A stretch of DNA of 64,000 nt. Origin: Myxococcota bacterium. GTDB lineage: Bacteria; Myxococcota_A; SURF-8. Positions 20,095 to 40,845 of the stretch are shown here, piece after piece. The stretch covers positions 5,120,001-5,184,000 of the forward strand of contig OZ223209.1 in NCBI GenBank assembly GCA_965140415.1, in the 5' to 3' direction. The stretch's first letter is position 1, and the number at the start of each line of letters is the position of its first letter. The notes under the pieces were generated by a model, which saw only the letters and a program-made list of their open reading frames with translations, ran no database searches and was not told the origin of the DNA. Both the position numbers and the translations under genes were made by a program.

Positions 20095-21954
20095 TTACGG
20101 TCGCACGCAGCGTACCTGCGAAAGCGCTTCGTCCTTTTTATCCGAATCGATGGCCCCGGCGTAAAAACCGACGAACCAGGCGTTCTCCGTCGTCGTGTTG
20201 ACTTCGGAATTCGACCAGGTATTGTCGTTGCAGCCGCCTAGCAACATCGGATCCCAGTAGCAGTGGTTCTGGCTGTCGTCGCAACCTTCGCAGGCGGAGT
20301 TCATACAGGTATCCGCCAAACAGCCATCGCGCACGTTGCAGGCCCCGGCGCTTTCCGTATTCGAACAATCACGAATCAGGCTGCGCAGTTCGGTCAGGCT
20401 CGGCAAGCGCCAGTCGCTGAAACCCGCCCAGCTTAAGGTATTGCAATAACTCTGCGCGGAACTGAAGCCGCGCGTCGCGGCGAGTGTCGGATCCTGCCAG
20501 GTCAGGTTGGTATTGGCATCCGTGCAGGCGCGTTCGCTGGGCACACCGGTACAGCTCATGCTGCTCTGCATCGCTTCCTCTTCCAGCTCCATCAGGTCAG
20601 CATCCAAATCGCCATCGGGTGCAGGAAGATCGTCGTCGCCGGGGAGTTCGCCATCGCCATCGGGAGGCAACTCCGCATCCTGATCGCCATCTGCGGCCAG
20701 ACAACGCATGCAACGCGCCAGGAATGCACTATCTTTCGACGAAGAATTGATCGCCCCGGCGTAGAAGCCAACGAACCAGGCGTTTTCATTTGTCGTACTG
20801 ACTTCGGAATCCGACCAGGTATTCTCGTTGCAGCCACCTTGCAAAGCCTCGTCCCAATAGCAGCTTCCCGTACCGGCAGTACAGCCGTCGCAGTCGCCAC
20901 TGTCGAAACAGGTATCTGCCAAACAGGCATCGTGAACGCCGCAGGCGCCGCCGCTTTCGGTTTCCGAGCAATTCACGATCAGGCTGCGCAACTGCGAAAT
21001 CGTCGGCAGGCACCAGTCGTCGTAACCGTTCCAGCTTAAATTCTCGCAGTAGCTCTGCGCCTGGGCAAAGGAACGCTCGGTTTCGGCTGGTGGGTCTTGC
21101 CACACGTAGCCGGTCGCCAGATCTTCACAAACGCGCTCGCTGATCGTCCCCTGGCAGTGCATGGTGGCGCTGGAATCCGGGTCGCTATCGCCATCGGGAA
21201 CATCACCGTCAACGCTGTCACCATCGGGGGCATCTCCGTCGCTGCTATCGCCATCAACATTGTCGCCATCGGTAATATCGCCATCCGATGCATCGCCATC
21301 CGGCACGTCGCCGTCACCCGTGTCGCCATCGGCGGGCGTATCGTCATCGCCATCGGGAGTGGAAGATTCACCAACCACACAACGCACGCGCAGTTCGCTT
21401 TCCTTGGGATTGCTGTTCAAGCCGGCAGAGTAAAAACCGATGAACCAGGCGGTGGTGGGAGCGTCCGTCACTTCCGAAGCGGACCACAGATCGATTTCGC
21501 AATCGCTGCCCAGCGCTTCGTCCCAATAGCAGCGTCCCGCCGAGCAGCCGGAGCAGTCGTTGCTCAAGCAGGAGGCGGTCAGGCAACCGTCGGTGATGCC
21601 ACACTCGCCGCCGGTGGCGGTGTGGTCGCAATCGCGCACCATCGAACGCAACTCGGAGATCGTCGGCAGCCGCCAGTCGTCGCGACCACCATAGCTGAAT
21701 TGCTCGCAGTAATCGATAGCCGCCTGCCAGTTGTACCGTTGCTCCGATATCGGCTGCGCCCAGCGCAAGTCGCTTTCAGAATCGCTGCACAGCGAGTCCC
21801 CGTTGACATCCTCGCATAGTACTTCGCCGTTGCCGGACGTGTCGCCATCGGTCGAGGAATCGCCGCTATCGTCGGAGCAGCCGAGCTGCACCAGCAGACC
21901 GGCGAGTAGTGACAGCAACACTGGTCCTATATTCAGACAACGCTTGCGCTTCAT
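20095..21954 (-). CDS. Lipoprotein with three DUF1566 (Lcl C-terminal-like) domains separated by DGD linkers
   Basis: Lipobox QLGC; three copies of WQ...YC..L/F...G..DW.LP...(E/Q)LRS and W....AWF.GFY...RC. Confidence 0.88.
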   Translation of the reverse strand: MKRKRCLNIGPVLLSLLAGLLVQLGCSDDSGDSSTDGDTSGNGEVLCEDVNGDSLCSDSESDLRWAQPISEQRYNWQAAIDYCEQFSYGGRDDWRLPTISELRSMVRDCDHTATGGECGITDGCLTASCLSNDCSGCSAGRCYWDEALGSDCEIDLWSASEVTDAPTTAWFIGFYSAGLNSNPKESELRVRCVVGESSTPDGDDDTPADGDTGDGDVPDGDASDGDITDGDNVDGDSSDGDAPDGDSVDGDVPDGDSDPDSSATMHCQGTISERVCEDLATGYVWQDPPAETERSFAQAQSYCENLSWNGYDDWCLPTISQLRSLIVNCSETESGGACGVHDACLADTCFDSGDCDGCTAGTGSCYWDEALQGGCNENTWSDSEVSTTNENAWFVGFYAGAINSSSKDSAFLARCMRCLAADGDQDAELPPDGDGELPGDDDLPAPDGDLDADLMELEEEAMQSSMSCTGVPSERACTDANTNLTWQDPTLAATRGFSSAQSYCNTLSWAGFSDWRLPSLTELRSLIRDCSNTESAGACNVRDGCLADTCMNSACEGCDDSQNHCYWDPMLLGGCNDNTWSNSEVNTTTENAWFVGFYAGAIDSDKKDEALSQVRCVRP

Positions 21955-24086: not shown

Positions 24087-25256
24087 CTAGCCTTCTCCGA
24101 TTTCTGAATCGGAATCATTCAAGTTGTCTGTTTCAATCTCTTTTGGCTCAAGCCAATCACTATCTGGTCGACATACAAGACGAGCATTACTATATGCCCA
24201 GTCAAGAGTCAAAACAGTATGCCCTAAATAGTTGCCAGAACACGTTTTTTCAACCGCTAAGGCTAGATCAACATGATTGTCATCCACTAAACATAACGGG
24301 AGTAACAACTGAAGCTTCTTTACTCGTGGATAGTATTGTGGCACTGCCGTTTTAAAGTTCCATGACACACGTTTAATTGACAATTCAACGGCGTCCTTAA
24401 CTCGGTTCATTATTCGCCGATATACTCGAGGATCATCCTCAACAGCTTTTCCTAACTCTTTTGAATATTTCTCTTTCTCATCACTATTTAAGTTTCGAGG
24501 GTCTTTCAAAGAAAAATCTCTAGGACTATTATCTTCAAGAAATTCCATTGGATATCTATCTAGCCGATCGATAATTATGTGTTTGAAATCGAGCTCGGGA
24601 TCTCCTTGGCGAACGTCGTATATAAGGTCCGTTGGTTCGTCAAAGTAGTGAGCAGATTCAGGCAATGGATTAAAGTAGCGAACCAAATCCTGCCCAGCAG
24701 CTTTTTCACCAGCAATACAAAACTCAATAATTTTCCATTGAGGTTGATCGTAAGTGTTTCTATTGAAAATAGCGTAGATTGTTTCATACCTAGAATCAAC
24801 AAGTCCGGTATTGAATGCGGCAAATTGACCGTCATCACTGTATTTAATTTTATCTTCCAACATTAACCTAGTGAAGGTTTGAAGAAGGTAACTGTATAGG
24901 ATCGGGAATGGTTTTTCAGGATCAATGCCTTGATTCTTGAACTCCCAGCGTTCATCTATCGCAATATCTTCAAGTTGTCGAATTGTATCAGGAATTTGCC
25001 CGAGATACGCCCATCCTAAAAGCTTGGAGACCTTTTTAGCTGAATTCTTAGAATTAGTGAGGTTGATCCTCGTAATCTGTTTCGCACAAGGTCCTCTTTG
25101 ATTTTCCCCAATCTCAAAATCTATAAGATCTCCTTCTTGTATCAATGAATCTTGACGATCCGTTACATCTGAAATGTGAAAAAACAAATTGCTTTCCAGC
25201 TGTTCAGAAGAAATAAAACCATATCCATCACCAAATTTTAAAATCTTACCTTGCAT
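24087..25256 (-). CDS. Cold-shock domain + DUF3825-like protein (AT-rich)
   Basis: GYGFI and LFFHISD RNP motifs; AAFNTGL, WNFKTAVPQYY, LQLLLPLCL, TVLTLDWAYSNARL. Confidence 0.82.
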   Translation of the reverse strand: MQGKILKFGDGYGFISSEQLESNLFFHISDVTDRQDSLIQEGDLIDFEIGENQRGPCAKQITRINLTNSKNSAKKVSKLLGWAYLGQIPDTIRQLEDIAIDERWEFKNQGIDPEKPFPILYSYLLQTFTRLMLEDKIKYSDDGQFAAFNTGLVDSRYETIYAIFNRNTYDQPQWKIIEFCIAGEKAAGQDLVRYFNPLPESAHYFDEPTDLIYDVRQGDPELDFKHIIIDRLDRYPMEFLEDNSPRDFSLKDPRNLNSDEKEKYSKELGKAVEDDPRVYRRIMNRVKDAVELSIKRVSWNFKTAVPQYYPRVKKLQLLLPLCLVDDNHVDLALAVEKTCSGNYLGHTVLTLDWAYSNARLVCRPDSDWLEPKEIETDNLNDSDSEIGEG

Positions 25257-28117: not shown

Positions 28118-28288
28118 GGATAAAACCATCACCAAAATCACATAAGAACCAAGTAGCGCCTGCACTTAATCCCGCCCATCTTAACCTGATTTTACTATTT
28201 TCTTAACAAACCGGCGCAGCTTGACTATGATGGGCTCCGGCATGGGCCAACGTTAATAACTGCTCGATAGCTGTACAAAGGTGATGTG

Positions 28289-29275
28289 ATGAAATCGACT
28301 TACTGTCTTAAAATGATTGTCGTTTTGCTCTTACTGATTCTCGCTGCCTGGGGCTGCTCGGATGATTCGAATGATCCCATTGTAGACGGCGATGGCGAAA
28401 ACGGCGACGGGGATGTGGATGGTGATTTCGACTTGGAAGCAGATGCGCTGCCTTCCGAAACGACATTGAACATCATGACCTACAACGTGCTTTGCTCCTT
28501 CTGCAACGCCACTTACGAGCCCTGGGAAGATCGTTTGCCGCATTTTACGGATATCTTCACCCGGCATGAAGTCGATATCGTCGGCACACAGGAATTATTC
28601 ACCGCAGATGAAGTGAATGAAATTCTGGCGCTCAATCCCAATTTCGAGGCGCTGTATTACATCGACGATCCCGACGATGGCCTGGGCTATCTGGAAGCCT
28701 ACCCGGACGAGGCGATTCTATACCGCACGGATCGCTTCGAAGTAATCGAACACGGCAACTACTGGCTTAGCGAAACCCCGGACGTTCCCTGGGCCGGTGG
28801 CTGGGCGCAAAACAATTTCTGGCGCCTGGTCGGCTGGGCGCATTTCCGGCAGATTTCCGATGGCCGCGAGTTCGTCTTTGTCAACACACACTTCGACAAC
28901 AACGTGCCCAACCAGGAAAACAGCGCGCCCTTATTCATCAGTCGCATCGAGCCCTGGGCGGAAACACTGCCGGTCATCGCCGTCGGCGATTTCAATTCCA
29001 AGCCGGACAGCCCCGCCTATGCCATTTTAACCGAAGGCATCGATGGCGAAGGCTTTGCGCTGGTCAACTCCTTCGATATCGCCGAGAACTGGCGCGTACA
29101 ACACAACCAGGCGCAGGAACCCGACTACGACCCGATTCATCGCATCGACCACATTTTCCTGGCCGGTCCGGTGGAATGGACCGTGTCCGACTGGGTGGTC
29201 GATCTAACGGTTTACGGGCCGCAGGATCAATATCCTTCCGACCATTATCCCATCGCCACAACACTGACCTTCTGA
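28289..29275 (+). CDS. Endonuclease/exonuclease/phosphatase-family lipoprotein with DGD linker
   Basis: IMTYNV, GTQE, NTHFD, GDFN, RIDHIF, SDHYP; lipobox AWGC. Confidence 0.92.
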   Translation: MKSTYCLKMIVVLLLLILAAWGCSDDSNDPIVDGDGENGDGDVDGDFDLEADALPSETTLNIMTYNVLCSFCNATYEPWEDRLPHFTDIFTRHEVDIVGTQELFTADEVNEILALNPNFEALYYIDDPDDGLGYLEAYPDEAILYRTDRFEVIEHGNYWLSETPDVPWAGGWAQNNFWRLVGWAHFRQISDGREFVFVNTHFDNNVPNQENSAPLFISRIEPWAETLPVIAVGDFNSKPDSPAYAILTEGIDGEGFALVNSFDIAENWRVQHNQAQEPDYDPIHRIDHIFLAGPVEWTVSDWVVDLTVYGPQDQYPSDHYPIATTLTF

Positions 29276-29294
29276 TTTTCTGTTGAACGCAAAC

Positions 29295-29326
29295 AAAAGG
29301 CGCGAGGCCAAAAGCCCCGCGCCTTT
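29295..29326. terminator. Bidirectional terminator
   Basis: aaaggcgcgaggc...gccccgcgccttt; near-identical stem at 30029-30055. Confidence 0.8.
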
Positions 29327-29388
29327 ATCTTTTCCGCAAACCGTTTCGATGCGCCTAAAATAAAGCGCAATCGAAAAAGAGACTCGAC

Positions 29389-29661
29389 CTACAGGTCGCC
29401 GTCAGTGGCCATATCGCCATCAACCGTGATGTCGCCGTCTACGGTGATGTCGCCATCAACCGTGATGTCGCCGTCCACGGTCACATCGCCGTCCACGGTC
29501 ACGTCGCCATCTACTGTCACATCGCCGTCGGTGGTGCCGTCGCCGTCCACGGTGACGTCGCCATCGGTGGTGGTGTCATCATCGTCATCGCAGCCAACCA
29601 TAACCAACTGCAAACTGAACACGATTACCAGAACTAAGAAAAACAGGTGCTTGGCTTTCAT
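29389..29661 (-). CDS. Lipoprotein consisting only of DGD hexapeptide repeats (90 aa)
   Basis: GGAGGAG RBS; MKAKHLFFLVL...MVGC followed by DDDDD and (DGDVTV/DGDITV)n. Confidence 0.85.
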   Translation of the reverse strand: MKAKHLFFLVLVIVFSLQLVMVGCDDDDDTTTDGDVTVDGDGTTDGDVTVDGDVTVDGDVTVDGDITVDGDITVDGDITVDGDMATDGDL

Positions 29662-29913
29662 CTCGCTCTCCTCCACGATTAAAATCTCACAACAAAATAC
29701 GCACAACGCGTAAAACAACTTCAGGGCGGTGATTGTGTATTGGAATTGCCGACATGTTTTAAAAAACGGAAGATTGCTGGGGATGTCATGGTTTGCGGAA
29801 TACGGATTTCATCTCAGCAGATTCCAGACGGCCAACTCCAACACGCTGTTTCCGAATGCGACAGACATTCGCTTCGCCCATAAAACCCCATGAAACAACA
29901 AATACGGGGCGCG

Positions 29914-29941
29914 ATTATACGGAAACTCGAAAAAGAATCAA
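29914..29941 (-). promoter_or_regulatory. Putative sigma70 promoter
   Basis: TTGATT-16 bp-TATAAT followed by GC-rich cgcgcccc, about 250 nt upstream of ATG 29661. Confidence 0.5.
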
Positions 29942-30028
29942 CAAAAGAATTGTATAGACTGCTGATTTTCTTAATTTACAACAGGATGTAGCCTACGATC
30001 ACCCACTCATTGTACGCCTGAAAACGAC

Positions 30029-30055
30029 AGGCGCGAGGCGAAATGCCCCGCGCCT
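30029..30055 (-). terminator. Terminator-like hairpin after the larger DGD lipoprotein gene
   Basis: aggcgcggggc...gcctcgcgcct on the minus strand with a G-U pair; same stem as 29295-29326. Confidence 0.7.
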
Positions 30056-30081
30056 TGTAAAACGTTTGACTATCGTTGGGA

Positions 30082-30645
30082 TTATTTACCCATTTCGACC
30101 AAGTCAACTTCCGCCAGATCGAATTCAGCCAGGTCAATTTCGAACATGTCGAAATCGCCGTCTGTGACCGCATCACCGTCAACAACTACATCGCCGTCAA
30201 CCACATCGCCGTCAACCACATCGCCGTCAACAACGACATCGCCGTCAACCGCATCACCATCAACAACGACATCGCCGTCAACCATGTCGCCGTCAACCAT
30301 GTCGCCGTCGGTCATGTCGCCGTCGGTCATGTCGCCGTCAACCATGTCACCGTCGGTGGTGTCGCCATCAGTGGTGTCGCCATCAACCGTGTCGCCGTCA
30401 ACCGTGTCGCCGTCAACCGTGTCGCCGTCAACCGTGTCGCCGTCAACCGTGTCGCCGTCGGTGGTGTCGCCGTCTGTGGTGTCGCCGTCTGTGGTGTCGC
30501 CATCAGCGTTGTCGCCATCAGCCATGTCGCCATCAGCCGTGTCACCGTCGACCGGGTCGTCGTCGTCATCACAGCCGACCATCGCCAACTGCATGCTGAA
30601 GACCAGAATCAGAACCAGGAAAAACAGGTGTTTACTTCTTTTCAT
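30082..30645 (-). CDS. Lipoprotein consisting almost only of DGD pentapeptide repeats (187 aa)
   Basis: GGAGGAG RBS; signal peptide paralogous to the 29661 gene; (DGDTT/DGDTV/DGDMT/DGDVV)n; short EFDLA-type tail. Confidence 0.87.
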   Translation of the reverse strand: MKRSKHLFFLVLILVFSMQLAMVGCDDDDDPVDGDTADGDMADGDNADGDTTDGDTTDGDTTDGDTVDGDTVDGDTVDGDTVDGDTVDGDTTDGDTTDGDMVDGDMTDGDMTDGDMVDGDMVDGDVVVDGDAVDGDVVVDGDVVDGDVVDGDVVVDGDAVTDGDFDMFEIDLAEFDLAEVDLVEMGK

Positions 30646-30924
30646 CTCAATCTCCTCCCGTGTTGTGTTGGATGAAATCAGGTTACGCAGAATGCGCAAG
30701 GTATGCCCAGTAAATCGGAATCAAGCAAAGGATAGCCCGGTCCCCGAAGGAAGAGGCTTCTTCCTTTTGTATTTTCTGCACCGTCGCCAGGTGCATTCTC
30801 GATTGTAAGTCGATACGCAACATCACGTTCTCGTATACGTCCTTGGTTATAAAGGAACTATGTCGCCAGTTTTGTCCACGTCACCCTCCCAAGCACATAA
30901 GGCTTTAGGTGAGCAGTTTACTTC

Positions 30925-30941
30925 TGCAAATGTAATGCCAA
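30925..30941 (-). promoter_or_regulatory. Putative sigma54 (-24/-12) promoter
   Basis: TTGGCATTACATTTGCA gives GG-N10-GC with TGGCA and TTGCA; an AT-rich tract lies just upstream. Confidence 0.6.
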
Positions 30942-31275
30942 CCATCCTGTTACAATTTAATTATTCAGAATAATTAGATATTTTTCCATTTTCGGAACAC
31001 GAATAACAACAACCTGTGTACCCTGAGATTGAAAACCCGATCCGAATCTCGGACAAATATGTCAGGCTGTCAGGCAAACTTGCCCCCCAATTTGGAATGC
31101 CTCAAAAGAAAAGCAGATCGGAGGCTTCGGCAAGCAGCTTGCTCTTGACGACCACACATACAATGGAATATACTTAATAAATTGAATAGGTTCAGCGAAC
31201 TTTCGTTGAAAGCATCAGACGATCAGGGTTGTGGGTTAGGCTTTTTTTTCGACCCGTCAGGAAAAGAGCAGGCGC

Positions 31276-32406
31276 GTGACGACAAGCATTCATATCCCGC
31301 TTTCCCGCCCCTTCATGGGAGAGGAAGAAGTGGAAGCGGTTCGGCAAACTCTGCAATCCGGCTGGATTGCCGGGCAAGGTCCGGCCTGCGCGCGCGTGGA
31401 ACGCAAAATTCAAGACGATATGAAAACCCCCTATGCGGCGGTGATATCCAGTTGCACGGCAGCCTTGCATCTGGCGTTGCAAGTTTCCGGAATCGGCAAA
31501 GGCGACGAGGTCTTGGTCAGCGACTATTCCTTCCCCGCCACCGGTCACGCCGTGTTGTACGTGGGAGCGACTCCGGTTTTCGTTGATGTAGATCCCGCCA
31601 CGGGAAACGCTTCCGTTGAAACCTTGCAAGCCGCCCTGACAGAACGAACACGCGCAATCCTGCTCGTGCATACGTTCGGTCTGATGGCCGATATGGAGCC
31701 TATCGCCGAATTCGCCCGCGAACACGGCCTGCTGCTCATCGAAGACGCCGCCTGCGCCTACGGTGCGCTGGATGCACAGCAACAACCGCCAGGCAGGCAT
31801 TCCGATATCGCCTGCTTCTCTTTTCATGCGCGAAAGAATGCGACTTCCGGCGAAGGCGGCGGCCTGATTACGACACAACAGACCATTTACGACAAGGTGA
31901 AATCTCTTACTTTCTTCGGTGTGCGCTCCGCCTTGCAGCGCCGCGACGCCGAAAGCTTCCAGCTACCGGAGTTTGGCGAGCTTGGATATAATTACAAGCT
32001 ATCGGATATTCAGGCCTCCGTTCTGTCGGTTCAATTGGAACGACTGCCGCAGATGCTCAAAGAGCGTCGCAAGCTGGCGGCGCACTACTATGCGCTGCTT
32101 TCCGATACGCCCGGAGTCACGCTGCGCCTGGTTGCCGATGGTGCGCTGCCAAGCTGGCAGAGTTTCGTGGTGACGTTAGCCGACGGCATCGACCGCAACC
32201 GGGTGATCGTTATGATGCGCGAGCGCGGGATCGAATGTCAGATCGGCACCTACGCCATGCACCTGCAACCGGTCTATGAAAGTCGCTGCTTATGCCCTCA
32301 GTCCGCGCGGCTGTTTCGCCAGGATCTGGCGCTGCCGTTGTTCGTCGGGCTTACGGAATCGCAACAGCAAGAAGTCGTAGACGCGCTTCAAGCCTGCTTG
32401 AAATAA
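31276..32406 (+). CDS. DegT/DnrJ/EryC1/StrS PLP-dependent sugar aminotransferase
   Basis: SSCTAALHLAL, IEDAAC, FSFHARKNATSGEGG, GYNYKLSD. Confidence 0.93.
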   Translation: MTTSIHIPLSRPFMGEEEVEAVRQTLQSGWIAGQGPACARVERKIQDDMKTPYAAVISSCTAALHLALQVSGIGKGDEVLVSDYSFPATGHAVLYVGATPVFVDVDPATGNASVETLQAALTERTRAILLVHTFGLMADMEPIAEFAREHGLLLIEDAACAYGALDAQQQPPGRHSDIACFSFHARKNATSGEGGGLITTQQTIYDKVKSLTFFGVRSALQRRDAESFQLPEFGELGYNYKLSDIQASVLSVQLERLPQMLKERRKLAAHYYALLSDTPGVTLRLVADGALPSWQSFVVTLADGIDRNRVIVMMRERGIECQIGTYAMHLQPVYESRCLCPQSARLFRQDLALPLFVGLTESQQQEVVDALQACLK

Positions 32407-32416
32407 GGATCGATCG

Positions 32417-33388
32417 ATGGATTTCGAAGGCAAACGCATTCTGGTTACTGGGGGAGCAGGCTTTATCGGCAGCCATCTTGTTGATGGTCTGATCGAACAG
32501 CGACCCGAAGCACTGGGTGTCATCGACAATCTGTTCCTTGGAAAAGAGCGCAACCTCAATCACGCGCGGCAGCATTTCCCGGATCTGAAATTCTACCCGG
32601 AGTCGGTGGCCGATGAACGCGCCTTCGAACATGTGCTGCGCGACTTTAAACCGCAGCTCGTTTTCAACCTGGCGACGATTCCGCTACCGACCAGTCTGGA
32701 GCGCCCGCGCTGGGCCTATGCCGAAAATATCGCCATCGGTTTGAATGCCCTGGAATTCCGACGGCTGGGACTGTTCGAACACCTGGTTCATTTCAGCACC
32801 TCCGAAGTCTACGGCAGCGCATTGACAGACGCGATCAGCGAAGAGCACCCGCGCGATTCTCACACGCCCTATGCATCATCCAAAGCCGCCAACGACAACC
32901 TGATCGCGGCGTATGAAAAAACCTTCGGCATCAAGACCTTGATTCTGCGGCCTTTCAACAACTACGGCCCCAGGCAGAACGAAGGTTCCTATGCGGGGGT
33001 GATTCCGAAAACGATCAAAGCGCTACTGGAAGGAAAACCGGCGCTGTTGTATGGCGACGGCGAACAGACACGCGACTTTATTTTCGTGAAGGATTGCGTA
33101 GGCCTGACCATCGAGGCGGCCAAACGCCTGGAGCTCTACGGCTCGGATTACAATCTCGGCTCGGGTCGGGAAGTGAAAATCGGCTGCCTGATTCGCGAAA
33201 TCTGCCGCCAACTCGACCAGCCGGACAACGTCGTAGAAGAGCCGGCGCGAGCGGGCGACGTGCGCCGCCATATGGCGGACATGTCGAAGCTATACGGCAA
33301 ACTCGGCTTGAAACCCGAAACCGATTTCGAAAATGGATTGCGGCAAACCATCGACTGGTATCGACGCCGCTTGCAAGAAGACTCCTAA
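32417..33388 (+). CDS. NAD-dependent nucleotide-sugar epimerase/dehydratase
   Basis: VTGGAGFIGS, STSEVYG, PYASSK, RPFNNYGPRQ, GDGEQTRDF. Confidence 0.93.
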   Translation: MDFEGKRILVTGGAGFIGSHLVDGLIEQRPEALGVIDNLFLGKERNLNHARQHFPDLKFYPESVADERAFEHVLRDFKPQLVFNLATIPLPTSLERPRWAYAENIAIGLNALEFRRLGLFEHLVHFSTSEVYGSALTDAISEEHPRDSHTPYASSKAANDNLIAAYEKTFGIKTLILRPFNNYGPRQNEGSYAGVIPKTIKALLEGKPALLYGDGEQTRDFIFVKDCVGLTIEAAKRLELYGSDYNLGSGREVKIGCLIREICRQLDQPDNVVEEPARAGDVRRHMADMSKLYGKLGLKPETDFENGLRQTIDWYRRRLQEDS

Positions 33389-33401
33389 ACTGAGGGCACA
33401 C

Positions 33402-34034
33402 ATGCACAGCGAGAAGACGTTCATTCATCCAACGGCGGAAGTTTCCGAGCAGTCGCAGATCGGCGATGGCTGCCGAATCTGGAACGGCGCGAAAGTACGC
33501 GAACAGGCAAACATTGGAAACGGCTGCACCATCGGCCAGAACGTCTACATCGATACGCAGGTTTGTATCGGCGAGCAGAGCAAGATTCAAAACGGCACCA
33601 GCGTATATCGCGGCGTGTCGATCGGCGCGCGTGTGTTCGTGGGACCGATGACGGTGTTCACCAACGACCGCTATCCGCGCGCGGAGATCTGGAACGACGA
33701 GCGGCTGGGATACACCGTGCTGGAAGACGGCTGCTCCATCGGCGGCGGGGCGGTCATCGTTTGCGGTAGCGAGTCACAGCCTCGGCGCATCGGCGCATAC
33801 GCGTTGGTGGCGGCGGGAGCGGTCGTCACCCGCGACGTTCCCGCTCATGCGCTGGTAGCCGGTAATCCGGCGCGCATAACGGCTTTTGTAACACGCGAAG
33901 GCTTTCCGGCAACGGAAGTGGTGAGCCAAAATGAACATGCGGTGCAACTTAAGGCGTCGCAGTCTGAAGATGCGGTGTCTATCGATCGGGTGTTGTACGA
34001 ACGATGGCTGAATGAAAGGGTGAAACATGGATAA
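33402..34034 (+). CDS. Hexapeptide-repeat N-acetyltransferase (WbpD/WlbB-like)
   Basis: FIHPTAEV, SKIQN, VFTND..PR, GAGAVV-like and VAGNPAR motifs. Confidence 0.88.
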   Translation: MHSEKTFIHPTAEVSEQSQIGDGCRIWNGAKVREQANIGNGCTIGQNVYIDTQVCIGEQSKIQNGTSVYRGVSIGARVFVGPMTVFTNDRYPRAEIWNDERLGYTVLEDGCSIGGGAVIVCGSESQPRRIGAYALVAAGAVVTRDVPAHALVAGNPARITAFVTREGFPATEVVSQNEHAVQLKASQSEDAVSIDRVLYERWLNERVKHG

Positions 34035-35052
34035 CGACCTGCGTATCGGCATCATCGGTCTGGGTCAGATGGGCTGCAACCATCTGCGCGTGCTTTCTTC
34101 ACTGCCGCAAGTCAACGAAATCCAGGTGGTGGAATCCGACGACGACAAGCGCGAAAACAACACCGCGAAATACCGCGTGGCCAAGTCTTATAAGCACCTG
34201 AGCGATTTTCTGGATTCGGCCACGGTAGACGCCTGCATCATTGCCGTGCAGCCGGAGTACCATTACGAAATCGCCCGGCAGTGCTTTGAACGCTGTATTC
34301 CCGTGCTGCTGGAAAAACCGATCGCCCATTCGCGCGAAGACGCGGCGGCCATCGTACAGGCGGCCAAAGCGAGCGACTGCCTTTGCCTGGTGGGTCATAT
34401 CGAACGCTTCAATCCCGTGGTGCGCAAGGCCAAAACCTTTATCGAAGAGGGGCGCGTGGGTAAGCCCTATCTCTGTAACACGCGTCGGGGCGGCCCCTTC
34501 CCCAAGCGACTTTTAAGCACCAACGTCGGGGTGCTGGTCGATCTGGCGGTACATGATGTCGATATCATCCAGTATTTAAGCAGCTCTCTGATTCGCGACG
34601 TGCAGTCGATGTTCATCAAAGCGGAGGAGCGCGAGATTTTCGCCAAGGCACTGTACCGCTGCGAATGCGATATGGCCGGTTCGATGGAATTTTCCTGGGT
34701 GTCGCCGCAGAAGGTGCGCCGCTTTCAATTGTTCGGCGCACTGGGGTTGATCGAGGGCGACTACATTTCTCAGAGTCTGCACTTTTACGAAAACGCCGAT
34801 ATCAACGCCGAAGACGATCCCTGGGCTACCAAGCATCTGGTCGCGGGGCGCATCGCCTCCGGGCGCATCATCGAGTATCCCGTCTGGCGCTCGGAACCTT
34901 TGCAACTGGAACTGGAACATTTTCTGGCTTGCGTGCGCGGCGAAGCCACGCCGGAAGTAACGCCGCAAATGGCCGCCCAGGTAGTGGATGTGGTACTGGA
35001 CATCAGCGAGAAAGGCGCGAACAGCCCCACCACGATTCGCTGTGAGCTGTGA
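34027..35052 (+). CDS. Gfo/Idh/MocA oxidoreductase (WbpB/WlbA-like)
   Basis: GLGQMG, LLEKPI, VGHIERFNP, DLAVHDVD, EPLQLELEHF. Confidence 0.88.
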   Translation: MDNDLRIGIIGLGQMGCNHLRVLSSLPQVNEIQVVESDDDKRENNTAKYRVAKSYKHLSDFLDSATVDACIIAVQPEYHYEIARQCFERCIPVLLEKPIAHSREDAAAIVQAAKASDCLCLVGHIERFNPVVRKAKTFIEEGRVGKPYLCNTRRGGPFPKRLLSTNVGVLVDLAVHDVDIIQYLSSSLIRDVQSMFIKAEEREIFAKALYRCECDMAGSMEFSWVSPQKVRRFQLFGALGLIEGDYISQSLHFYENADINAEDDPWATKHLVAGRIASGRIIEYPVWRSEPLQLELEHFLACVRGEATPEVTPQMAAQVVDVVLDISEKGANSPTTIRCEL

Positions 35053-35189: not shown

Positions 35190-35963
35190 CTACCTACAAT
35201 ACAATCTCTCCAAACACGCCTTCACAGCCTGAAAGAAGGCATTGTCGGGCAGATCGAGGAAGCTGCTGCCGGCCATGTCAGCGCGGCGGATGGCATCTTC
35301 TTCGGGCAACCAGCCCAATAGCGGCAGTTGTTTCGGTAGCGATAGTTCGTCGAGCTCCGATTCCGCATGGATACGATTTAAAATCAGGGACGCGGACTGG
35401 TAGTGAATCGCAGCCTGCGCCACCTCCCAGATATTGCGCGCGGCGGCCAAGCCTTTTACGGACCCATCCGACACCGTGATCAACTGCGTTACGCGCTCCA
35501 TCACACGGCGGTTGACCTGTTCGACACCCGCCTCACCGTCGATGATGACCACATCGAATTCGGCGCTATAGGTCTTGATGAGATCCTTCAACAGCGCGTT
35601 GACCTGACAGTAACAGCCCTCCGTTTCCGGGCGACCAATGGAAAGAAAGGCCAGGTTATCCCGCTCGCGTAGCGCCTGCAACAGGCGGTAGTCCATGCGA
35701 TGCAGGATCTCCTCGCGGTCGGCGTTCAGGCCCTGCTGTAAGTCGGCTATCAGTTCGTTGCGGATCTGATCCACGGTGAGTTTGGCTTCGATCCCCAACG
35801 CAAAGGACAGCCCGGAGGCCGGATCGGCATCGATAGCCAACACGCGCCGATTTGAATCGGCTGTGAGTACGCGCACCAGCGCCGCACTGACGGAGGTCTT
35901 GCCCACGCCGCCTTTACCGCACACCGCGATCAACTGCGGCTCGCGCATTTGGGCATCAGCCAT
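35190..35963 (-). CDS. CooC/AcsF-like nickel-insertion ATPase
   Basis: GKGGVGKT, DADP, EGCYC (CxC), DGEAGVE. Confidence 0.85.
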   Translation of the reverse strand: MADAQMREPQLIAVCGKGGVGKTSVSAALVRVLTADSNRRVLAIDADPASGLSFALGIEAKLTVDQIRNELIADLQQGLNADREEILHRMDYRLLQALRERDNLAFLSIGRPETEGCYCQVNALLKDLIKTYSAEFDVVIIDGEAGVEQVNRRVMERVTQLITVSDGSVKGLAAARNIWEVAQAAIHYQSASLILNRIHAESELDELSLPKQLPLLGWLPEEDAIRRADMAGSSFLDLPDNAFFQAVKACLERLYCR

Positions 35964-36693
35964 GATCGGCCTCCCCGTTACGATGCGCGTGCATGGCGCG
36001 CAGTGCGTCTACCTCGTTGCAGACATCGTTGTATTCGCAACTGTCGCAGTCCAAGGAATATTCCGCCGCGATCCTGTCCATGGCGCGGGTACGTCGCTCG
36101 GCCTGTTTCCCGATTTGCTGCAATGCGCTCACATCCTGGCTACTGCTCGTGACCAGCAGAATTTCCGCCGCCTTAACCAGCGGATGCGAACGATACAGGC
36201 GCAGCCACTCGCCGCCCAGCGCCGCCAGCGTTCCGCCCTGCGCTAACGCCTGTTTGCTTACCCGGCTCCACTCGCGCCCATACTGACTGACCGCGCGCAG
36301 CATATAGCCGGACAGTTCTAGCTCGAATCGCAAGCGGTCCAATTCCCGTTGACGCTCGAAGGCATTGTCGGTAGTGAAATCGGAGACGCCAAGTAATAGC
36401 ACCTTGCCAAATGGAAGCTGCGGCTGATCCATCTCGCTCAATTCGGAACCGAGCAGGCTGACGTGGCCATCGTGAATGATTTCCCTTTGATTACTCCAGA
36501 GCAGAAAGGCCGTCGAGATGGAATCGGGATGTCCCAGTTCTACGGCGGTTTCGCTCTGCATGACGATGCGCCCCTTCTGCCCCTCCGGCCAGGCGGGGAG
36601 ATCTTTCTCCTGGTACTGTCGAAACGGCGTGGCATCCTGCCGTTGTGCGACGAAGTCCCGCACGCCGCTGATGAGATCCTCGTACAATTCCAT
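35956..36693 (-). CDS. Short protein resembling an acetyl-CoA synthase subunit fragment, with C-terminal CX2CX5C
   Basis: TAVELG, DGHVSLLG.EL, LPFG, GYMLRA...REWSRVSK, DCDSCEYNDVC. Confidence 0.65.
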   Translation of the reverse strand: MELYEDLISGVRDFVAQRQDATPFRQYQEKDLPAWPEGQKGRIVMQSETAVELGHPDSISTAFLLWSNQREIIHDGHVSLLGSELSEMDQPQLPFGKVLLLGVSDFTTDNAFERQRELDRLRFELELSGYMLRAVSQYGREWSRVSKQALAQGGTLAALGGEWLRLYRSHPLVKAAEILLVTSSSQDVSALQQIGKQAERRTRAMDRIAAEYSLDCDSCEYNDVCNEVDALRAMHAHRNGEADHG

Positions 36694-36702
36694 TGGGTAT
36701 CC

Positions 36703-37500
36703 TTATGCACTGGCGGCGCGGCTTTGGGTTGCCATGCGTTCGGCAGCGATGCAGGCCGCCCCGAATGCGCCGTTTAACTGCGGCTCGGACAGGCGCACCA
36801 GTTCGACGCCTAACGCTTCGCCCAGCGCCAAGAACATGCCGTCGTTCAAGGCAACCCCACCACTCATCGCGATTGAGGACTCCAAGCCGATGCTCTTTGC
36901 CATGGCCGAGGCGCGCCGAGCCACCGAGCGGTGCAGCGCTTTGATGATATCCGCCGTTTCCTTGCCCTCCGCCACCAACGACAGGATTTCCGTTTCGGCG
37001 AAGATCACGCATTGATTCGACAACTGCAAGTCGCCGCTGGCCTGCTTGGACAGGCTACCTAACTCGCTTAAATCCAGTTCCAGCGCATCGGCTATGATCT
37101 CCAGAAATCGCCCGGTACCCGAGGCGCACTTGTCGTTATACAGATAGCGGGTCACGTTGCCCTGCTCGTCGAAACGCAACGCCTTGGCGTCCTGCCCGCC
37201 GATATCCACCAGCATGCGCACCTGCGGAGCCTGTTCGATCGCCCCGCGCGCGTGGCAAACGATTTCCGATTCCACCTGCTGGCAAAAGGAAATGCGCTTA
37301 CGACCATAGCCAGTGCCTACACAATATTGCAGCTCCTCCAGCTTTGCGCCGCATTGTTGCAGAGCCTGTTGTAACGCGCCCTGCGCCGATTGTTCCGGGT
37401 CGGTGCCGCAACGCACCACGCCGGTAGCCAACAGCTTGCCATCCTTTAAAATCACCGCCTTGGCGCTTAACGAGCCGACATCACAACCTGCAACCATCAT
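36703..37500 (-). CDS. ATP-dependent activase (HgdC/BcrA-D/BadF-G family)
   Basis: GCDVGS, GTGYGR, DIGGQDAK, NDKCASGTG, CVIFAETE, GGVALN. Confidence 0.92.
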   Translation of the reverse strand: MMVAGCDVGSLSAKAVILKDGKLLATGVVRCGTDPEQSAQGALQQALQQCGAKLEELQYCVGTGYGRKRISFCQQVESEIVCHARGAIEQAPQVRMLVDIGGQDAKALRFDEQGNVTRYLYNDKCASGTGRFLEIIADALELDLSELGSLSKQASGDLQLSNQCVIFAETEILSLVAEGKETADIIKALHRSVARRASAMAKSIGLESSIAMSGGVALNDGMFLALGEALGVELVRLSEPQLNGAFGAACIAAERMATQSRAASA

Positions 37501-38288
37501 GCTGCGCCTCCATTTCCCTGTTCCGCCGCCAATAGCGCCGCCCCGATGGCCCCGGCGATCTGCGGATCGTAGCGCCGAATCCGGCGCGTGCGCAGACCGA
37601 GCAGCTTTTCGATTGCCGCCAGTACGCCCTCGTTCTTGGCGACACCGCCTGTCATACAGACCTCGGGTTCGATACCGAGATTATTCACCAAGGTCACAAT
37701 GCGCGAGGCCATGGCGGTGTTGATACCTGCGGCGATATCCTCTACCGCTACGCCGTTATTGAGATGGCGGATGACATCCGCCTGCGCCCAAACGGTGCAG
37801 GCATTGGCAAAGGTCACCGGATTCTTGGATCGGCGCGACATATCGCCCAATTCCTTCAAACCCACGCCGACCACCCCGGCCATCACTTCCAGAAAGCGCC
37901 CCGTACCCGAGGCGCACTTGTCGTTGGCCACGAATTTCCCGATGCTGCCGTCCTCGTTCAGGCGCATCGCCTTGCAATCCTGCCCGCCGACATCGATCAC
38001 CGTTTTCACAGTGGGCGAGAGCCACTTGGCCCCGCGTCCATGGCAGGCGATTTCCGAAATGGCCTCATCCACAAAGGGGAGCTTGTCGCGACCGTATCCG
38101 GTGCCGATGCAGCACTCGATTTGTGCCTGCGTTGCATTGGCCTTTTGCAGGGCCTCGGCCATCACCGCTTCCCCAGACTCCCAGGGCTTGGCTTTCGATT
38201 TGATCACGGCAAAGCTTACGATGCGCCCATTCTTCATCAGCACCGCCTTGCTGGTCAGCGAGCCGACGTCACAGCCTGCAACCATCAT
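37497..38288 (-). CDS. ATP-dependent activase (HgdC/BcrA-D/BadF-G family), second paralog
   Basis: GCDVGS, GTGYGR, DVGGQDCK, NDKCASGTG, CTVWAQ, GGVAKN. Confidence 0.92.
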   Translation of the reverse strand: MMVAGCDVGSLTSKAVLMKNGRIVSFAVIKSKAKPWESGEAVMAEALQKANATQAQIECCIGTGYGRDKLPFVDEAISEIACHGRGAKWLSPTVKTVIDVGGQDCKAMRLNEDGSIGKFVANDKCASGTGRFLEVMAGVVGVGLKELGDMSRRSKNPVTFANACTVWAQADVIRHLNNGVAVEDIAAGINTAMASRIVTLVNNLGIEPEVCMTGGVAKNEGVLAAIEKLLGLRTRRIRRYDPQIAGAIGAALLAAEQGNGGAA

Positions 38289-39694
38289 GGCAACAACCTC
38301 CTGACCGAAAGAAATTCCTCGAAACGTTCGCGCGTCGCCTCCCAGGATTCCACCCGGTCGTCAAAGGCGTCCGCGTACATGATGTGTGTGGGATAACCGG
38401 CCCGTTCGGTATCGCGGGCGAAAAGCTTTAGCATTCCCCAGGTGTTGCGGCAACCGGGCGTGCCGTTGTATACAATCAGATCCGCGCTGTACATCTTGGC
38501 CAGCGCAAGCGAATCTTCCAGCCACATGTCGCGGGCGTCGTAAGGACCGCGAATCGACTTGACCATCGGCATACGCGAATTCAACCGCGCCAGGCTGTCG
38601 ATCATACGATCCAGATCGCCCATGTCGATGCTGTAGGTGGCGTCTTCCCTGCCTGTTTCGACGGCATAGGCGGAATGAGGCGCCCAATGCTTGCTTAAAA
38701 TGTTTCCCTGTGAGGCGATACCCAATTCGTCCAGCATCTTCCACAATTTCAGATGCTGGGTGTAATGATCGATGTAACAGAAAAACGCCCGCAGGTTTTC
38801 CTTGCCATGCTTCAAGCCGCACAGGTTGTGCTCCGCGTTGTGCTTGGCCACTTTTAACATCGACTCCAGCAGCGTGGTGCATTCCTTCATCCCGGCAAAG
38901 AGAAAGCGCGCGACGTACATCATGAAATTAAAGGTCACCGGCAGCGGCGTTGGCACCAGCCGCGCGAATTCCTCCAGCTCCATGATGATTTCATCCTGGT
39001 ACTGCACTTCCTCCAGGATTCCTTTCAACCGGTCGGCATCCAGCTTTTTGCCGGTGTTCTCTTCCAGAAAACGGATCAGCGCCCGGTAATCCTCGCGGTG
39101 ATACTCGTCGTTGCGCTCGCCGATCAACTCCGGGGGAAAATCGAGTTGGAAAAAGGGTTTCTTTAAATACGCGGCGGTAAAGGAAAAGGCGTTGGCGTTG
39201 GTGTCGCACACGCCGGGTGTATCGGTGACGATCATGTCGATTTCATGCCCGATGCCTGCCAGATAGCCGCCCAGTGCGCCGCGCTGCGAGGAGCAGGAGG
39301 TTTCCGTAAAACCCAATTCGTTGCAGTAATCCAGAAATTCCGCCGTGCCGCGCGGGTAGGTAAGCGTCATGACGCCGCTCATAACTTCCAGGCAGACCGG
39401 TACGATATCCATGGCGTATAATAAGGAAGGCGAAAAGCAGAAGGTGGTGATGGCGCGCTTCTGGCCTCTTTCGTGGGCGAACACGATGTTCTCGAAATAT
39501 TTTGCGCAGACATCGATGAACTTCTGCCCCGGCTCGCCGGTATCGAAGACGGCTTCAATGATGCCTCGGAAGTAGGGCAGGTATTTCAACGACGTCTGAT
39601 ACTCCTTCAAGGAGCCGCTCTTTAAGCGTGCGCCCGCCGCGAAGGTGGAATAGAGCATCCAGTCGAAGGGATATTCCCGAGTTGCATTTCTCAT
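38285..39694 (-). CDS. 2-hydroxyacyl-CoA dehydratase/benzoyl-CoA reductase family subunit (large)
   Basis: ETSCSSQ, GVCD, FLEENTGKKLD, GCRN; ATGA-type overlaps with neighbours. Confidence 0.85.
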   Translation of the reverse strand: MRNATREYPFDWMLYSTFAAGARLKSGSLKEYQTSLKYLPYFRGIIEAVFDTGEPGQKFIDVCAKYFENIVFAHERGQKRAITTFCFSPSLLYAMDIVPVCLEVMSGVMTLTYPRGTAEFLDYCNELGFTETSCSSQRGALGGYLAGIGHEIDMIVTDTPGVCDTNANAFSFTAAYLKKPFFQLDFPPELIGERNDEYHREDYRALIRFLEENTGKKLDADRLKGILEEVQYQDEIIMELEEFARLVPTPLPVTFNFMMYVARFLFAGMKECTTLLESMLKVAKHNAEHNLCGLKHGKENLRAFFCYIDHYTQHLKLWKMLDELGIASQGNILSKHWAPHSAYAVETGREDATYSIDMGDLDRMIDSLARLNSRMPMVKSIRGPYDARDMWLEDSLALAKMYSADLIVYNGTPGCRNTWGMLKLFARDTERAGYPTHIMYADAFDDRVESWEATRERFEEFLSVRRLLP

Positions 39695-40845
39695 GAGCGT
39701 CCCTCCCGATGTTTTGCGATCTTTTCCAAAAAGGCGTCGAGACGAATTTTCAGCCGTCCCTTTTCCACCAGCGGCCCGTACTCGCGCTCGATGCGTAGGC
39801 AGGGGATGCCCTCCGCCTCCAGGTCGCGGTCGAACAGGCCGTTTTCCGCGCCGTGAATGTCGCAGAAACGGATATTCTGCAACACCACGCCTTCCACCGC
39901 ACCGCGCCGGATCTTTTCGCGCAGCAATTCCAATCGGTTTTCATATTGCCCGTACATACGCGGGCATTCGTTTTTGGCCAGGTAGTGACTGGCCAGGGTC
40001 TGCACCGGATCGTCTGATACATCTACCGCTTGTAATTGGGAACGCGGTCCGAAGCAGAGGTTATCCGCCACGACCCGCGCGCTTTCGCCTTCAACCAGCC
40101 GCACCAGCTCGACATCATCGTTGGCGCTGCCCACCAGCATCAGGCGAATGCGCCCGTCCTTCGTTTCCTTGCGATTTTCAAATTCTTTCAGTAGCGCCGC
40201 CAGCCGTTCGTTGTAGGCCTCGCGCGGCATCGTCGATGCCGCCAGCACCACAGCCAGCGCCGTTGCGCCGTCGATGGGAGCATCCGGGGAAAGGCGCAGT
40301 TCGTCGAACTGTCGCAGCAATTCCCGTCCCCGGTTGTACAGCTCGATCGACTTCAGCAGTTTGTCATCGGTAAGCGTGACGCCGAAATGCGTTTGCAGTG
40401 CATCGATCAGGCGATGAATTTCATCGCTGAACCATTTCAGGGTGTAGTCGGAGAACTTGTGCGGTACGCCGAAATGAAAGAAGAATCGCGGTACGATACC
40501 GTCGATGTCATCTCCCGCCTTGCGCCAGCATTCATCCAGCCGCCGCATGGAGTCGCAACCGGGAGTGATGATCGCGCCGTCCAAAAAGCTCAGGCGGCCT
40601 TCCCCGGCCAGTTGCAGGAAATGCTTGGGCATGCTGCAAATGAAGGGACCGAAGTAGGTGTCGCCGATGCTGCACTCCTGCGCCTCATGCCCACGCAGGC
40701 GGTACGGCAGGATTCCGGCGGCGTGAAAGATTTCATCCGGCAGATACGAGCAGGTGTAGCCGACGATCTTTTTGCCTGCGCTCTTCCACTCGTCGAGAAA
40801 GGGATTGTGCAGCCGGTTGGCGCTGTGTATCCAGTCGTGAGTCAT
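39691..40845 (-). CDS. 2-hydroxyacyl-CoA dehydratase/benzoyl-CoA reductase family subunit (small)
   Basis: GYTCSYLP.EI.HAAG, CDSMRR, DNLCFG, FCDIH, RLDAFLE. Confidence 0.88.
   Translation of the reverse strand: MTHDWIHSANRLHNPFLDEWKSAGKKIVGYTCSYLPDEIFHAAGILPYRLRGHEAQECSIGDTYFGPFICSMPKHFLQLAGEGRLSFLDGAIITPGCDSMRRLDECWRKAGDDIDGIVPRFFFHFGVPHKFSDYTLKWFSDEIHRLIDALQTHFGVTLTDDKLLKSIELYNRGRELLRQFDELRLSPDAPIDGATALAVVLAASTMPREAYNERLAALLKEFENRKETKDGRIRLMLVGSANDDVELVRLVEGESARVVADNLCFGPRSQLQAVDVSDDPVQTLASHYLAKNECPRMYGQYENRLELLREKIRRGAVEGVVLQNIRFCDIHGAENGLFDRDLEAEGIPCLRIEREYGPLVEKGRLKIRLDAFLEKIAKHREGRS

Follow-up and report, generated by a model that had tools for sequence, protein, structure and literature searches.

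Two duplicated lipoprotein genes composed of DGD repeats as candidate free-standing stalks in a Myxococcota bacterium

We analyzed a window of 64,000 nucleotides (the whole stretch of DNA examined; contig OZ223209.1, positions 5,120,001 to 5,184,000 of the forward strand) from the genome of a Myxococcota bacterium (assembly GCA_965140415.1, hereafter G000; a single contig of 5.98 Mb with 52% G+C), in which two adjacent genes, here called gene A and gene B, encode predicted lipoproteins that consist almost wholly of DGD repeats. The two genes are one duplicated whole transcription unit, and the DGD tract that they encode is a standard anchor-adjacent stalk in this genome and in its family, not something special to A and B. 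Because the tract is such a genome-wide stalk, A and B are best read as "stalk-only" genes, i.e., stalks without a head, and we propose, with moderate confidence, that their products are free-standing lipoproteins forming a polyanionic, cation-binding brush in the cell envelope. Coordinates below refer to the window unless they are preceded by the name of a genome.

Anatomy of the two lipoproteins

Gene A and gene B are composed of the following parts:

29389..29661, minus strand: gene A, a 90-residue prolipoprotein with signal peptide, CDDDDD and 10 DGD units of six residues (DGD[VI]TV), from the translation, the list of open reading frames (ORFs) and the 18-bp period
29590..29661, minus strand: gene A signal peptide and lipobox (MKAKHLFFLVLVIVFSLQLVMVG before the Cys), from the sequence pattern
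29392..29589, minus strand: gene A mature acidic tract, net charge -25 over 67 residues, from charge-hydropathy and AlphaFold2
30082..30645, minus strand: gene B, a 187-residue prolipoprotein with signal peptide, CDDDDD, 26 DGD units (mostly of five residues) and a 23-residue tail, from the translation and the 15-bp period
30571..30645, minus strand: gene B signal peptide and lipobox (MKRSKHLFFLVLILVFSMQLAMVG before the Cys), from the sequence pattern
30154..30570, minus strand: gene B acidic DGD tract, the mature protein having a net charge of -64 over 163 residues
30085..30153, minus strand: gene B C-terminal tail FDMFEIDLAEFDLAEVDLVEMGK, 23 residues with no DGD and a degenerate five-residue E-x-D-L-x rhythm

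The initial annotation had described tandem lipoprotein genes made solely of DGD repeats, with mainly a six-residue period in one and mainly a five-residue period in the other; both genes indeed lie on the minus strand as listed, and Tandem Repeats Finder gives periods of 18 bp in gene A and 15 bp in gene B. Lipoproteins were recognized by pattern rather than by a trained predictor (basic N-terminus, hydrophobic core, and a lipobox [LVI][ASTVI][GAS]C near residue 15-35), and this pattern is present in both products (MKAKH..LVMVG/C with Cys24 in A, and MKRSKH..LAMVG/C with Cys25 in B). The signal peptide with its lipobox reads KHLFFLVLVIVFSLQLVMVGC in A and KHLFFLVLILVFSMQLAMVGC in B, and DDDDD follows directly in each. 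Every spacer between the DGD units of A has three residues (VTV, ITV, GTT, or MAT), and the spacers of B have two residues in 21 cases and three in 4. The mature chains contain neither Lys nor Arg save the last residue of B, a Lys that ends the tail and is the sole basic residue of its mature chain, and the product of gene A ends in Leu. Pro and Cys are both missing from the two tracts.

No family in Pfam or NCBIfam scores above its cut-off for A or B, which agrees with the initial view that neither protein has a folded passenger domain, with the addition that B ends in the DGD-free tail. Among calcium-binding Asp-rich families, neither RTX (PF00353) nor the thrombospondin type 3 (TSP3) repeats match A or B in Pfam at E <= 1, and DGD at a period of five or six residues yields no DxDxDG loop in either sequence. 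The pentapeptide repeat family (PF00805) has no match at E <= 1 for B; pentapeptide repeats follow an A(D/N)LXX-type unit with a central Leu or Phe, and the center of the unit in B is Gly or Asp.

A duplicated transcription unit with signs of purifying selection

Matching elements surround the two coding regions:

29668..29674, minus strand: gene A Shine-Dalgarno sequence GGAGGAG, 6 nt before the ATG
30652..30658, minus strand: gene B Shine-Dalgarno sequence GGAGGAG, 6 nt before the ATG
29698..29713, minus strand: gene A 5' box or small hairpin TTACGCGTTGTGCGTA, a hairpin in the minimum-energy and centroid folds
30684..30699, minus strand: gene B 5' box or small hairpin TTGCGCATTCTGCGTA, from motif search and fold
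29296..29326, minus strand: gene A intrinsic terminator, fold z-score -4.4
30029..30055, minus strand: gene B intrinsic terminator, fold z-score -4.3

The signal peptides of A and B are 79% identical over 28 residues and are reciprocal best matches among 682 candidate lipoprotein N-termini of G000, so that their near-identity, as first noted, holds on the scale of the genome. The strong ribosome-binding sites ascribed to the two genes are also unusual, GGAGGAG being found at only 6 of the 682 candidate starts and GGAGG at 74. About 30 nt upstream of the ribosome-binding site, both genes carry a 16-nt 5' box (TT[AG]CGC[AG]TT[CG]TGCGTA) that forms a hairpin of 5-7 bp, with one stem position A-U in one copy and G-U in the other; this box could be an operator or a hairpin at the 5' end of the mRNA. 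The two terminators, whose stems had been called near-identical, share the stems GGCGCGGGGC / GCCTCGCGCC, and that of gene A, which lies between convergent genes, may serve the neighboring plus-strand gene (28286..29275, described below) too. In the whole 5.98-Mb genome, A and B are the only sites of the 5' box and of the terminator sequence (two copies of each), so the ancestral unit was a short gene, already equipped with a terminator. With box, ribosome-binding site, signal peptide and terminator in common, A and B are genuine paralogues, each a small lipoprotein gene that is complete, as the initial annotation supposed. The duplication is old, and the remaining intergenic DNA of the two copies is no longer alignable.

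The signal peptides can be aligned over 26 codons, in which synonymous differences number 11.5 and non-synonymous ones 4.5 (pS 0.73, pN 0.07), a pattern that points to purifying selection on the export signal in both copies. Selection on the DGD peptide, which had been suggested from the variation of codons between repeats, is likewise supported by the arrays, in which all 36 DGD units of A and B are intact despite synonymous variation (Asp is a mixture of GAC and GAT, and Gly in B is encoded by 22 GGC and 4 GGT). The codon argument stands only in part, however, since the arrays also contain blocks of identical units (5 x ACGGTT) that indicate recent slippage acting as well.

The DGD tract as a genome-wide stalk module

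G000 contains 307 stop-to-stop ORFs with at least four DGD motifs. Within the first 80 mature residues of the 682 candidate lipoproteins, at least one DGD occurs in 336, at least two in 261, and at least ten in 35. In 311 candidates the tract begins no more than 40 residues from the lipobox Cys; 47 of these have tracts that reach 50 residues or more from it, 18 reach 100 or more, and 7 reach 150 or more, the longest extending to 195 residues. The dominant periods in the genome are five (1262 intervals) and six (878 intervals), the same two that distinguish B from A, and the spacers are rich in Thr (18%), Val (18%), Pro (13%), and Ile (9.5%) and very poor in Lys (0.7%) and Arg (0.3%). Acidic residues also gather directly behind the anchor, Asp making up 19-24% of residues at positions +3 to +6 and at least three acidic residues occurring between +2 and +9 in 232 of the 682 candidates.

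A domain scan of 20 tether-bearing lipoproteins (a random draw of 19 from the 76 that qualified, and in addition the one with the third-best signal-peptide match) found unrelated Pfam domains in nine, namely FGE-sulfatase (2), trypsin, LDLa, VWA, FG-GAP (2), C11 peptidase, and a PQQ propeller, and no Pfam domain at E <= 1e-5 in the other 11. A and B depart from this usual linker architecture in that they connect no folded domain, B adding only its short tail, and the share of the mature chain taken up by the tract is the greatest among all 682 candidates (82% and 80%, respectively).

Several proteins illustrate other uses of the tract. A 2500-residue lipoprotein ORF (G000:C1:4995804-5003312) carries 119 DGD motifs in several separate arrays up to residue 2103; giant proteins use the DGD tract between domains too. 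Three small lipoproteins (G000:C1:1071684-1072391, 2041877-2042434, and 3321063-3321599) consist of a lipobox, a DGD tract, and a C-terminal module of about 50 residues with the pattern ..Y.L.F.[FL]AP..L......[YF].L.., which matches nothing in Pfam or NCBIfam and is possibly a mini-domain that still lacks a name. Within the window, further DGD-bearing exported proteins are an Lcl_C-domain protein (20095-21954, minus strand) and a 909-residue lipoprotein whose DGD tether precedes four DUF4397 repeats (45567-48296, plus strand).

The tract also accompanies a second kind of anchor. MYXO-CTERM tags send proteins to the cell surface through myxosortase, and in TraA a disordered region adjoins the tag, according to the available part of the report (PMC11980579). 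Defining such tags by TIGR03901 (a C-terminal Cys motif, a transmembrane helix, an Arg cluster, and at least 20 bits), we found 18 above the NCBIfam cut-off in G000 and none in 14 control genomes. This census, together with the source names of protein matches, is the basis on which G000 was assigned to the phylum. At least three DGD motifs lie within the 150 residues before the tag in 14 of these 18 proteins, often abutting it, and the tract is therefore a general anchor-adjacent stalk that is not confined to lipoproteins. One of the 18 resembles A and B in having no head:

G000:C1:1377978-1378694 (locus L059:479-1126), minus strand: third headless protein, with a type-I-like signal peptide, 24 DGD units (mostly DGDTPx), and MYXO-CTERM

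Its C-terminus reads CGCS..FCLLLLAGLFFLRRRNVLD, and its score against TIGR03901 is borderline (20.0 bits in the genome search and 18.0 bits for the trimmed protein, at a cut-off of 20 bits). The genome therefore holds three headless stalk proteins on two unrelated anchors, an N-terminal lipid in A and B and MYXO-CTERM in the third, so that an "anchor plus stalk, no head" design appears to have been used with both.

Distribution in the phylum and search for orthologues

The DNA pattern (DGDxx)x3 was counted across 201 genomes of the phylum, with the backward pattern as a control; G000 is the sole representative of its genus among the genomes compared. Within the family, 971 matches were counted in G000, and 546, 198, 101, 24, and 8 in the five other genomes (G001 to G005, respectively); G008, of the same order, has 57, and the other 194 genomes have 0-6 each. 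Any match at all was found in 21 of the 201 genomes. The backward control gave 0-2 matches, and because it gave none in G000 against 971 for the forward pattern, the DGD repeats are far beyond chance. G004 has the flanking orthologues most similar to those of the A/B locus (62% and 70% identity for the two flanking genes introduced below) yet only 24 matches, and the more distant G001 has 546. The DGD trait is lineage-bound and very unevenly expanded, and its load changes fast and does not simply follow phylogeny.

Two groups of neighboring genes frame the locus:

28286..29275, plus strand: a lipoprotein of the endonuclease/exonuclease/phosphatase (EEP) type with a short DGD tether, an ordinary example of stalk plus head
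31276..35052, plus strand: an amino-sugar nucleotide cassette of four genes, divergent from gene B, identified with Pfam (a DegT aminotransferase, an NAD epimerase/dehydratase, a hexapeptide acetyltransferase, and a Gfo/Idh/MocA oxidoreductase)

In G001, G003, G004, and G005, orthologues of the EEP gene have acidic tethers that differ in length and sequence. No DGD-only ORF lies beside any of these orthologues or beside the DegT orthologue of G004, where separate contigs hold the EEP and DegT orthologues. When gene B was compared with 1.84 billion representative proteins (phmmer), 1377 matches were obtained at E <= 1e-3 and 23 at E <= 1e-30, and the 14 short matches examined among the 1377 are domain-bearing or unrelated low-complexity repeats. 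A protein search (P0002) against 21 related genomes gave only matches of the tract to longer genes, and the five shortest of the relatives' matches that we examined all have a C-terminal domain. At the DNA level, the 5' end of gene B matched gene A only. Each of the matches from a homologous-protein search (8 classed as "near" and 26 as "longer") has a domain or is a fragment, and a related-locus search of genome contigs found one chance Streptomyces locus only. The DNA downstream of both genes was searched with blastx, in which the 420 nt after B gave nothing at E <= 1 and the stretch after A only chance rows of 17-25 residues, with no domain relic. Orthologues carrying C-terminal domains would have marked A and B as truncations; no orthologue of any kind was found, and recent truncation is argued against because the whole short unit including its terminator was duplicated and no relic lies downstream. 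Public contigs from three runs of one study match the sequence of the locus without differences, the short-read contigs ending within the gene B repeat. The sequencing records covering 28200-31300 include no RNA run.

A proposed free-standing polyanionic stalk

We suggest that A and B may be transcribed independently and made in quantity. Each precursor comprises a predicted signal peptide for Sec and signal peptidase II, a lipobox Cys, five Asp residues, and an unbroken DGD-x2-3 array, and would be lipidated and then carried to the outer membrane or the cell surface. There the chains, with charges of -25 and -64, would stand out as a polyanionic brush, retaining divalent cations and water in their extended form and, having no Arg or Lys sites in the array, resisting the cell's own proteases directed at these residues. 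A and B would thus act as material and not as enzymes. In hundreds of exported proteins of the family, the same array would serve as a flexible acidic spacer between the anchor and a folded domain, A and B being the spacer without the head. We favor this reading because of the purifying selection indicated at the signal peptide and the DGD units, the strong expression signals, the duplication of the complete unit, the existence of a third headless protein, and the analogous stalks of other bacteria. The single-sequence AlphaFold2 model of gene B agrees with it (pLDDT 54.5, with no secondary structure after the signal peptide and none in the C-terminal tail), and in a charge-hydropathy analysis both mature chains fall on the unfolded side (mean hydropathy 0.45 for A and 0.43 for B, against a boundary of 0.55). 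The initial annotation had taken the DGD tract itself to be functional, and a polyanionic coat or cation binder is the option that appears to fit best; the implied specificity did not hold, as the tract is a general stalk and not peculiar to A and B.

Several points weigh against this proposal. Expression, lipidation, final location, cation binding, and brush function of A and B are all properties that we infer. No orthologue of either gene was found in the five other genomes of the family (by protein, DNA, or synteny) or in two protein collections, and the conservation of A and B is known from this genome alone. The repeat units are multiples of three and are open in several frames, so that an open frame is weak evidence of a gene; the estimate of selection comes from 26 codons only, and the 682 candidate lipoproteins were collected with a crude lipobox regular expression and not with a trained predictor. 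With regard to localization, Asp at +2 is a signal for inner-membrane retention in Escherichia coli, and the inner-membrane signal in Myxococcus xanthus is Lys at +2 (as given in the accessible part of PMC3222651). Lastly, the single-sequence AlphaFold2 model of A is a beta-solenoid with a mean pLDDT of 76.2 (78-86 in the repeat), which leads to the first of the alternatives below.

Alternative explanations

It is possible, though unlikely, that A, and perhaps the Pro-free Val-rich end of B, folds into a small cation-dependent beta-helix with a core of Val and Ile, with Thr and Asp outside and turns at Gly-Asp, in which Ca2+ would neutralize ladders of Asp by analogy with RTX beta-rolls; instead of a floppy chain, this would give a stiff rod, or else a surface for interactions or for the nucleation of mineral. 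The model of A has ten strands of 3-4 residues at a six-residue period, the tracts of A and B have no Pro, and the unit V-D-G-D-V-T fits the hexapeptide rule [LIV]-[GAED]-x2-[STAV]-x; a six-residue period, a turn Gly, and a Val/Ile pattern are what A shares with known beta-solenoids such as the hexapeptide LbH transferases (PF00132), bactofilin (PF04519), and RTX beta-rolls. Sub-threshold Pfam rows also comprise the beta-helix families bactofilin, FapA, and MinC_C (together with TrAA12), and the Foldseek list for A consists mostly of beta-helices (bactofilin, ice-binding proteins, and MinC). However, AlphaFold2 is known to over-predict the beta-solenoid fold for repeats, and none of the Foldseek matches in the Protein Data Bank (PDB) reaches E <= 0.001, the best being bactofilin 6ria (E 0.43, TM 0.38). 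In the ESM Atlas, the best scores of 0.80-0.81 belong to unnamed clusters and are below the level of more than a lead. The bactofilin rows remain under the cut-off of 27.9 bits (A 23.7, B 10.6), and bactofilin is a cytoplasmic polymer whereas A and B are exported by prediction. No Hexapep match is found for A or B in Pfam at E <= 1, although the same library scores the neighboring acetyltransferase at 77.7 bits, and RTX and TSP3 are equally lacking. Freedom from Pro is shared by 47 of the 114 long arrays of the genome, which are ordinary tethers. With -0.37 charges per residue, A is placed on the unfolded side without counter-ions, and any fold would therefore need them. The solenoid put forward in the initial annotation thus keeps weak support in the model of A (pLDDT 76, with a risk of artefact) and none in B, which is modeled without any structure (pLDDT 54).

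It is also possible, if improbable, that A and B are functionless by-products of evolution, i.e., orphaned 5' parts (signal peptide plus tether) of longer genes that have stayed open only because the repeat is hard to break. The missing orthologues and the several open frames of the arrays agree with this idea, as do two further observations: the locus is a synteny breakpoint (G004 has its EEP and DegT orthologues on separate contigs), and a 1006-residue FG-GAP lipoprotein carries the next-best signal peptide. On the other hand, the duplicated unit includes the unique terminator and 5' box, so the short form predates the duplication; synonymous sites of the signal peptide are near saturation while its amino acids are conserved; and the unusually strong Shine-Dalgarno sequence has been retained in both copies. 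Moreover, no relic coding sequence lies downstream, and a third headless stalk exists that is anchored independently.

A bolder form of the stalk proposal, which we hold to be distinctly unlikely, is that headless DGD stalks are a dedicated class of surface "cation sponges" with about 25-65 carboxylates per chain that capture Ca2+ or other divalent metals, the Pro-free and Val/Thr-rich form of gene A switching to a beta-solenoid on binding, so as to provide a tunable charged or mineral-nucleating coat.

The position of gene B, divergent from a nucleotide-sugar operon, had been pointed out in the initial annotation, and the four-gene cassette does begin at 31276. It raises the prospect of a glycosylation scaffold, in which the Thr-rich spacers would be O-glycosylated in a mucin-like manner with a sugar from the cassette, much as staphylococcal Ser-Asp repeats are modified with GlcNAc. 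The high share of Thr among spacer residues is compatible with this, and D-[ST]-[AILVMT] is the Bacteroidetes-type glycosylation sequon, the form D-[ST]-[AILVT] occurring in at least 259 of the 1262 period-5 spacers; such a proportion led us to reject the sequon as a definition of the tract. We regard the scaffold as very unlikely. In many tracts, Asp is followed by neither Ser nor Thr (VV, VI, MP, MV), the Thr of A sits in V-T-V, and no glycosyltransferase or oligosaccharyltransferase is present in the cassette or beside A and B; we know of no SdgA/B-like modification of DGD tracts. The neighborhood is, furthermore, unconserved: because the first three cassette genes recur in G004 without any DGD gene, the flanks there being on different contigs, the proposed functional link of the DGD genes to sugar metabolism is without support.

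The idea that B is an envelope tie comparable to Braun's lipoprotein Lpp, anchored in the outer membrane, linked to peptidoglycan through its C-terminal Lys, and acting as a long entropic spring, is extremely improbable. B is, like Lpp, a small domain-less lipoprotein that ends in Lys, its sole basic residue, with a strong ribosome-binding site and terminator (E. coli lpp is a small gene with both), and no Lpp homologue is found in the genome. Nevertheless, A ends in Leu, there is no sequence relation to Lpp and no coiled coil, and the genome has no match to LPP (PF04728) and no YkuD-type L,D-transpeptidase (PF03734), for which the same search was positive in 7 of 14 control genomes; the tie was rejected on the last two grounds. 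A precursor of a ribosomally synthesized and modified peptide (RiPP) or lipidated peptide was rejected as well, there being no maturase-like gene beside A and B and no Cys in the tract.

Other features of the window

Two long plus-strand open frames antisense to gene B (30076-30675 and 30146-30808), with VAVNH.. and SPSTT.. repeats, arise as by-products of the repeat and might be mistaken for genes. The RNA-family search gave a single row, mir-598 inside the repeat (29530-29586), which at 27 bits against a gathering score of 69 was taken as spurious, and no other row. Elsewhere in the window, a minus-strand cluster (35956-42317) holds two BcrAD/BadFG-type ATPases, two HGD-D subunits, and two ORFs without a Pfam match; the HGD-D subunits are 2-hydroxyacyl-CoA dehydratase or benzoyl-CoA reductase-like, and the cluster fits an anaerobic lifestyle. 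A cold-shock domain fused to DUF3825 is encoded at 24087-25256 (minus strand).

Comparison with known systems

Disordered linkers and stalks beside a membrane anchor are known already. Lipoprotein trafficking in E. coli depends on disordered linkers (El Rayes et al., bioRxiv 10.1101/2021.01.05.425367), and the linkers of RcsF, NlpD, and Pal, as the accessible part of that report presents them, resemble the DGD tract in following directly after the lipidated Cys, in having no predicted structure, and in being attached to unrelated domains. Linker length and sequence likewise vary between orthologues, as in the EEP tethers and in the protein at G000 2155353 compared with its G001 counterpart. 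The DGD tract differs in that a strict DGD-x2-3 unit is repeated in tandem over as many as 195 residues; it is used in hundreds of proteins, also before C-terminal anchors, and in A and B no domain comes after it.

The staphylococcal Ser-Asp repeats, disordered and highly extended (PMC9881980), offer a second parallel. The "R region" of ClfA, ClfB, SdrC, and SdrD is, in the available portions of the two sources (PMC9881980, PMC3794999), an acidic low-complexity repeat on the anchor side that is extended and disordered and projects a head. The DGD stalks differ by their Gram-negative host, by a lipid or MYXO-CTERM anchor in place of LPXTG, and by a unit of 5-6 residues instead of a dipeptide. 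DGD tracts do match NCBIfam SD-region models weakly, with E-values down to 1e-14 and in the repeat region only; because the scores are 13.9-53 bits against cut-offs of 999-2500, these matches reflect composition and not homology.

The acidic run that follows immediately on the +1 Cys, giving CDDDDD in both A and B, recalls the lipoprotein export signal of Bacteroidetes, which is K-(D/E)2 in Capnocytophaga canimorsus and SDDDD in Bacteroides fragilis in the part of PMC5080379 available to us. However, the phylum is another one, and there is no sign that Myxococcota read such a signal; the sorting determinants that the accessible part of PMC3222651 gives for M. xanthus are just two, Lys at +2 for the inner membrane and Ala at +7 for the matrix. 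The disordered segment of TraA, directly before a C-terminal surface anchor, is comparable to the tracts of the 14 of 18 MYXO-CTERM proteins described above, whereas no repeat composition is described in the available part of that report (PMC11980579) and the headless protein at G000 1377978-1378694 has no TraA-like domain.

A full-text literature search, which left supplements aside, found no paper on DGD repeats, and the available parts of the literature on Myxococcota lipoproteins and MYXO-CTERM proteins contain no description of them. No description was found of the strict DGD-x2-3 unit, of its presence next to both anchors, of its approximately 970-fold expansion in a single genome, or of stalk-only genes.

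Biological implications

Linkers of lipoproteins are usually short, unremarkable, and different in every protein. One bacterial family has instead standardized the linker into a single repeat, DGD plus two or three residues, and uses it beside both kinds of anchor, with the (DGDxx)x3 DNA pattern expanded about 970-fold in G000. For the annotation of uncultured Myxococcota, this means that hundreds of "hypothetical" proteins share an apparent homology that is the tract only. An old duplicate pair of linker-only genes with strong expression signals suggests that the stalk material is useful in itself, for surface charge, cation storage, spacing, or protease resistance, and constructs for probing what the stalks do could hardly be simpler than A and B. 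If the cation-sponge idea were true, the cell would gain a tunable charged or mineral-nucleating coat from its own stalk module.

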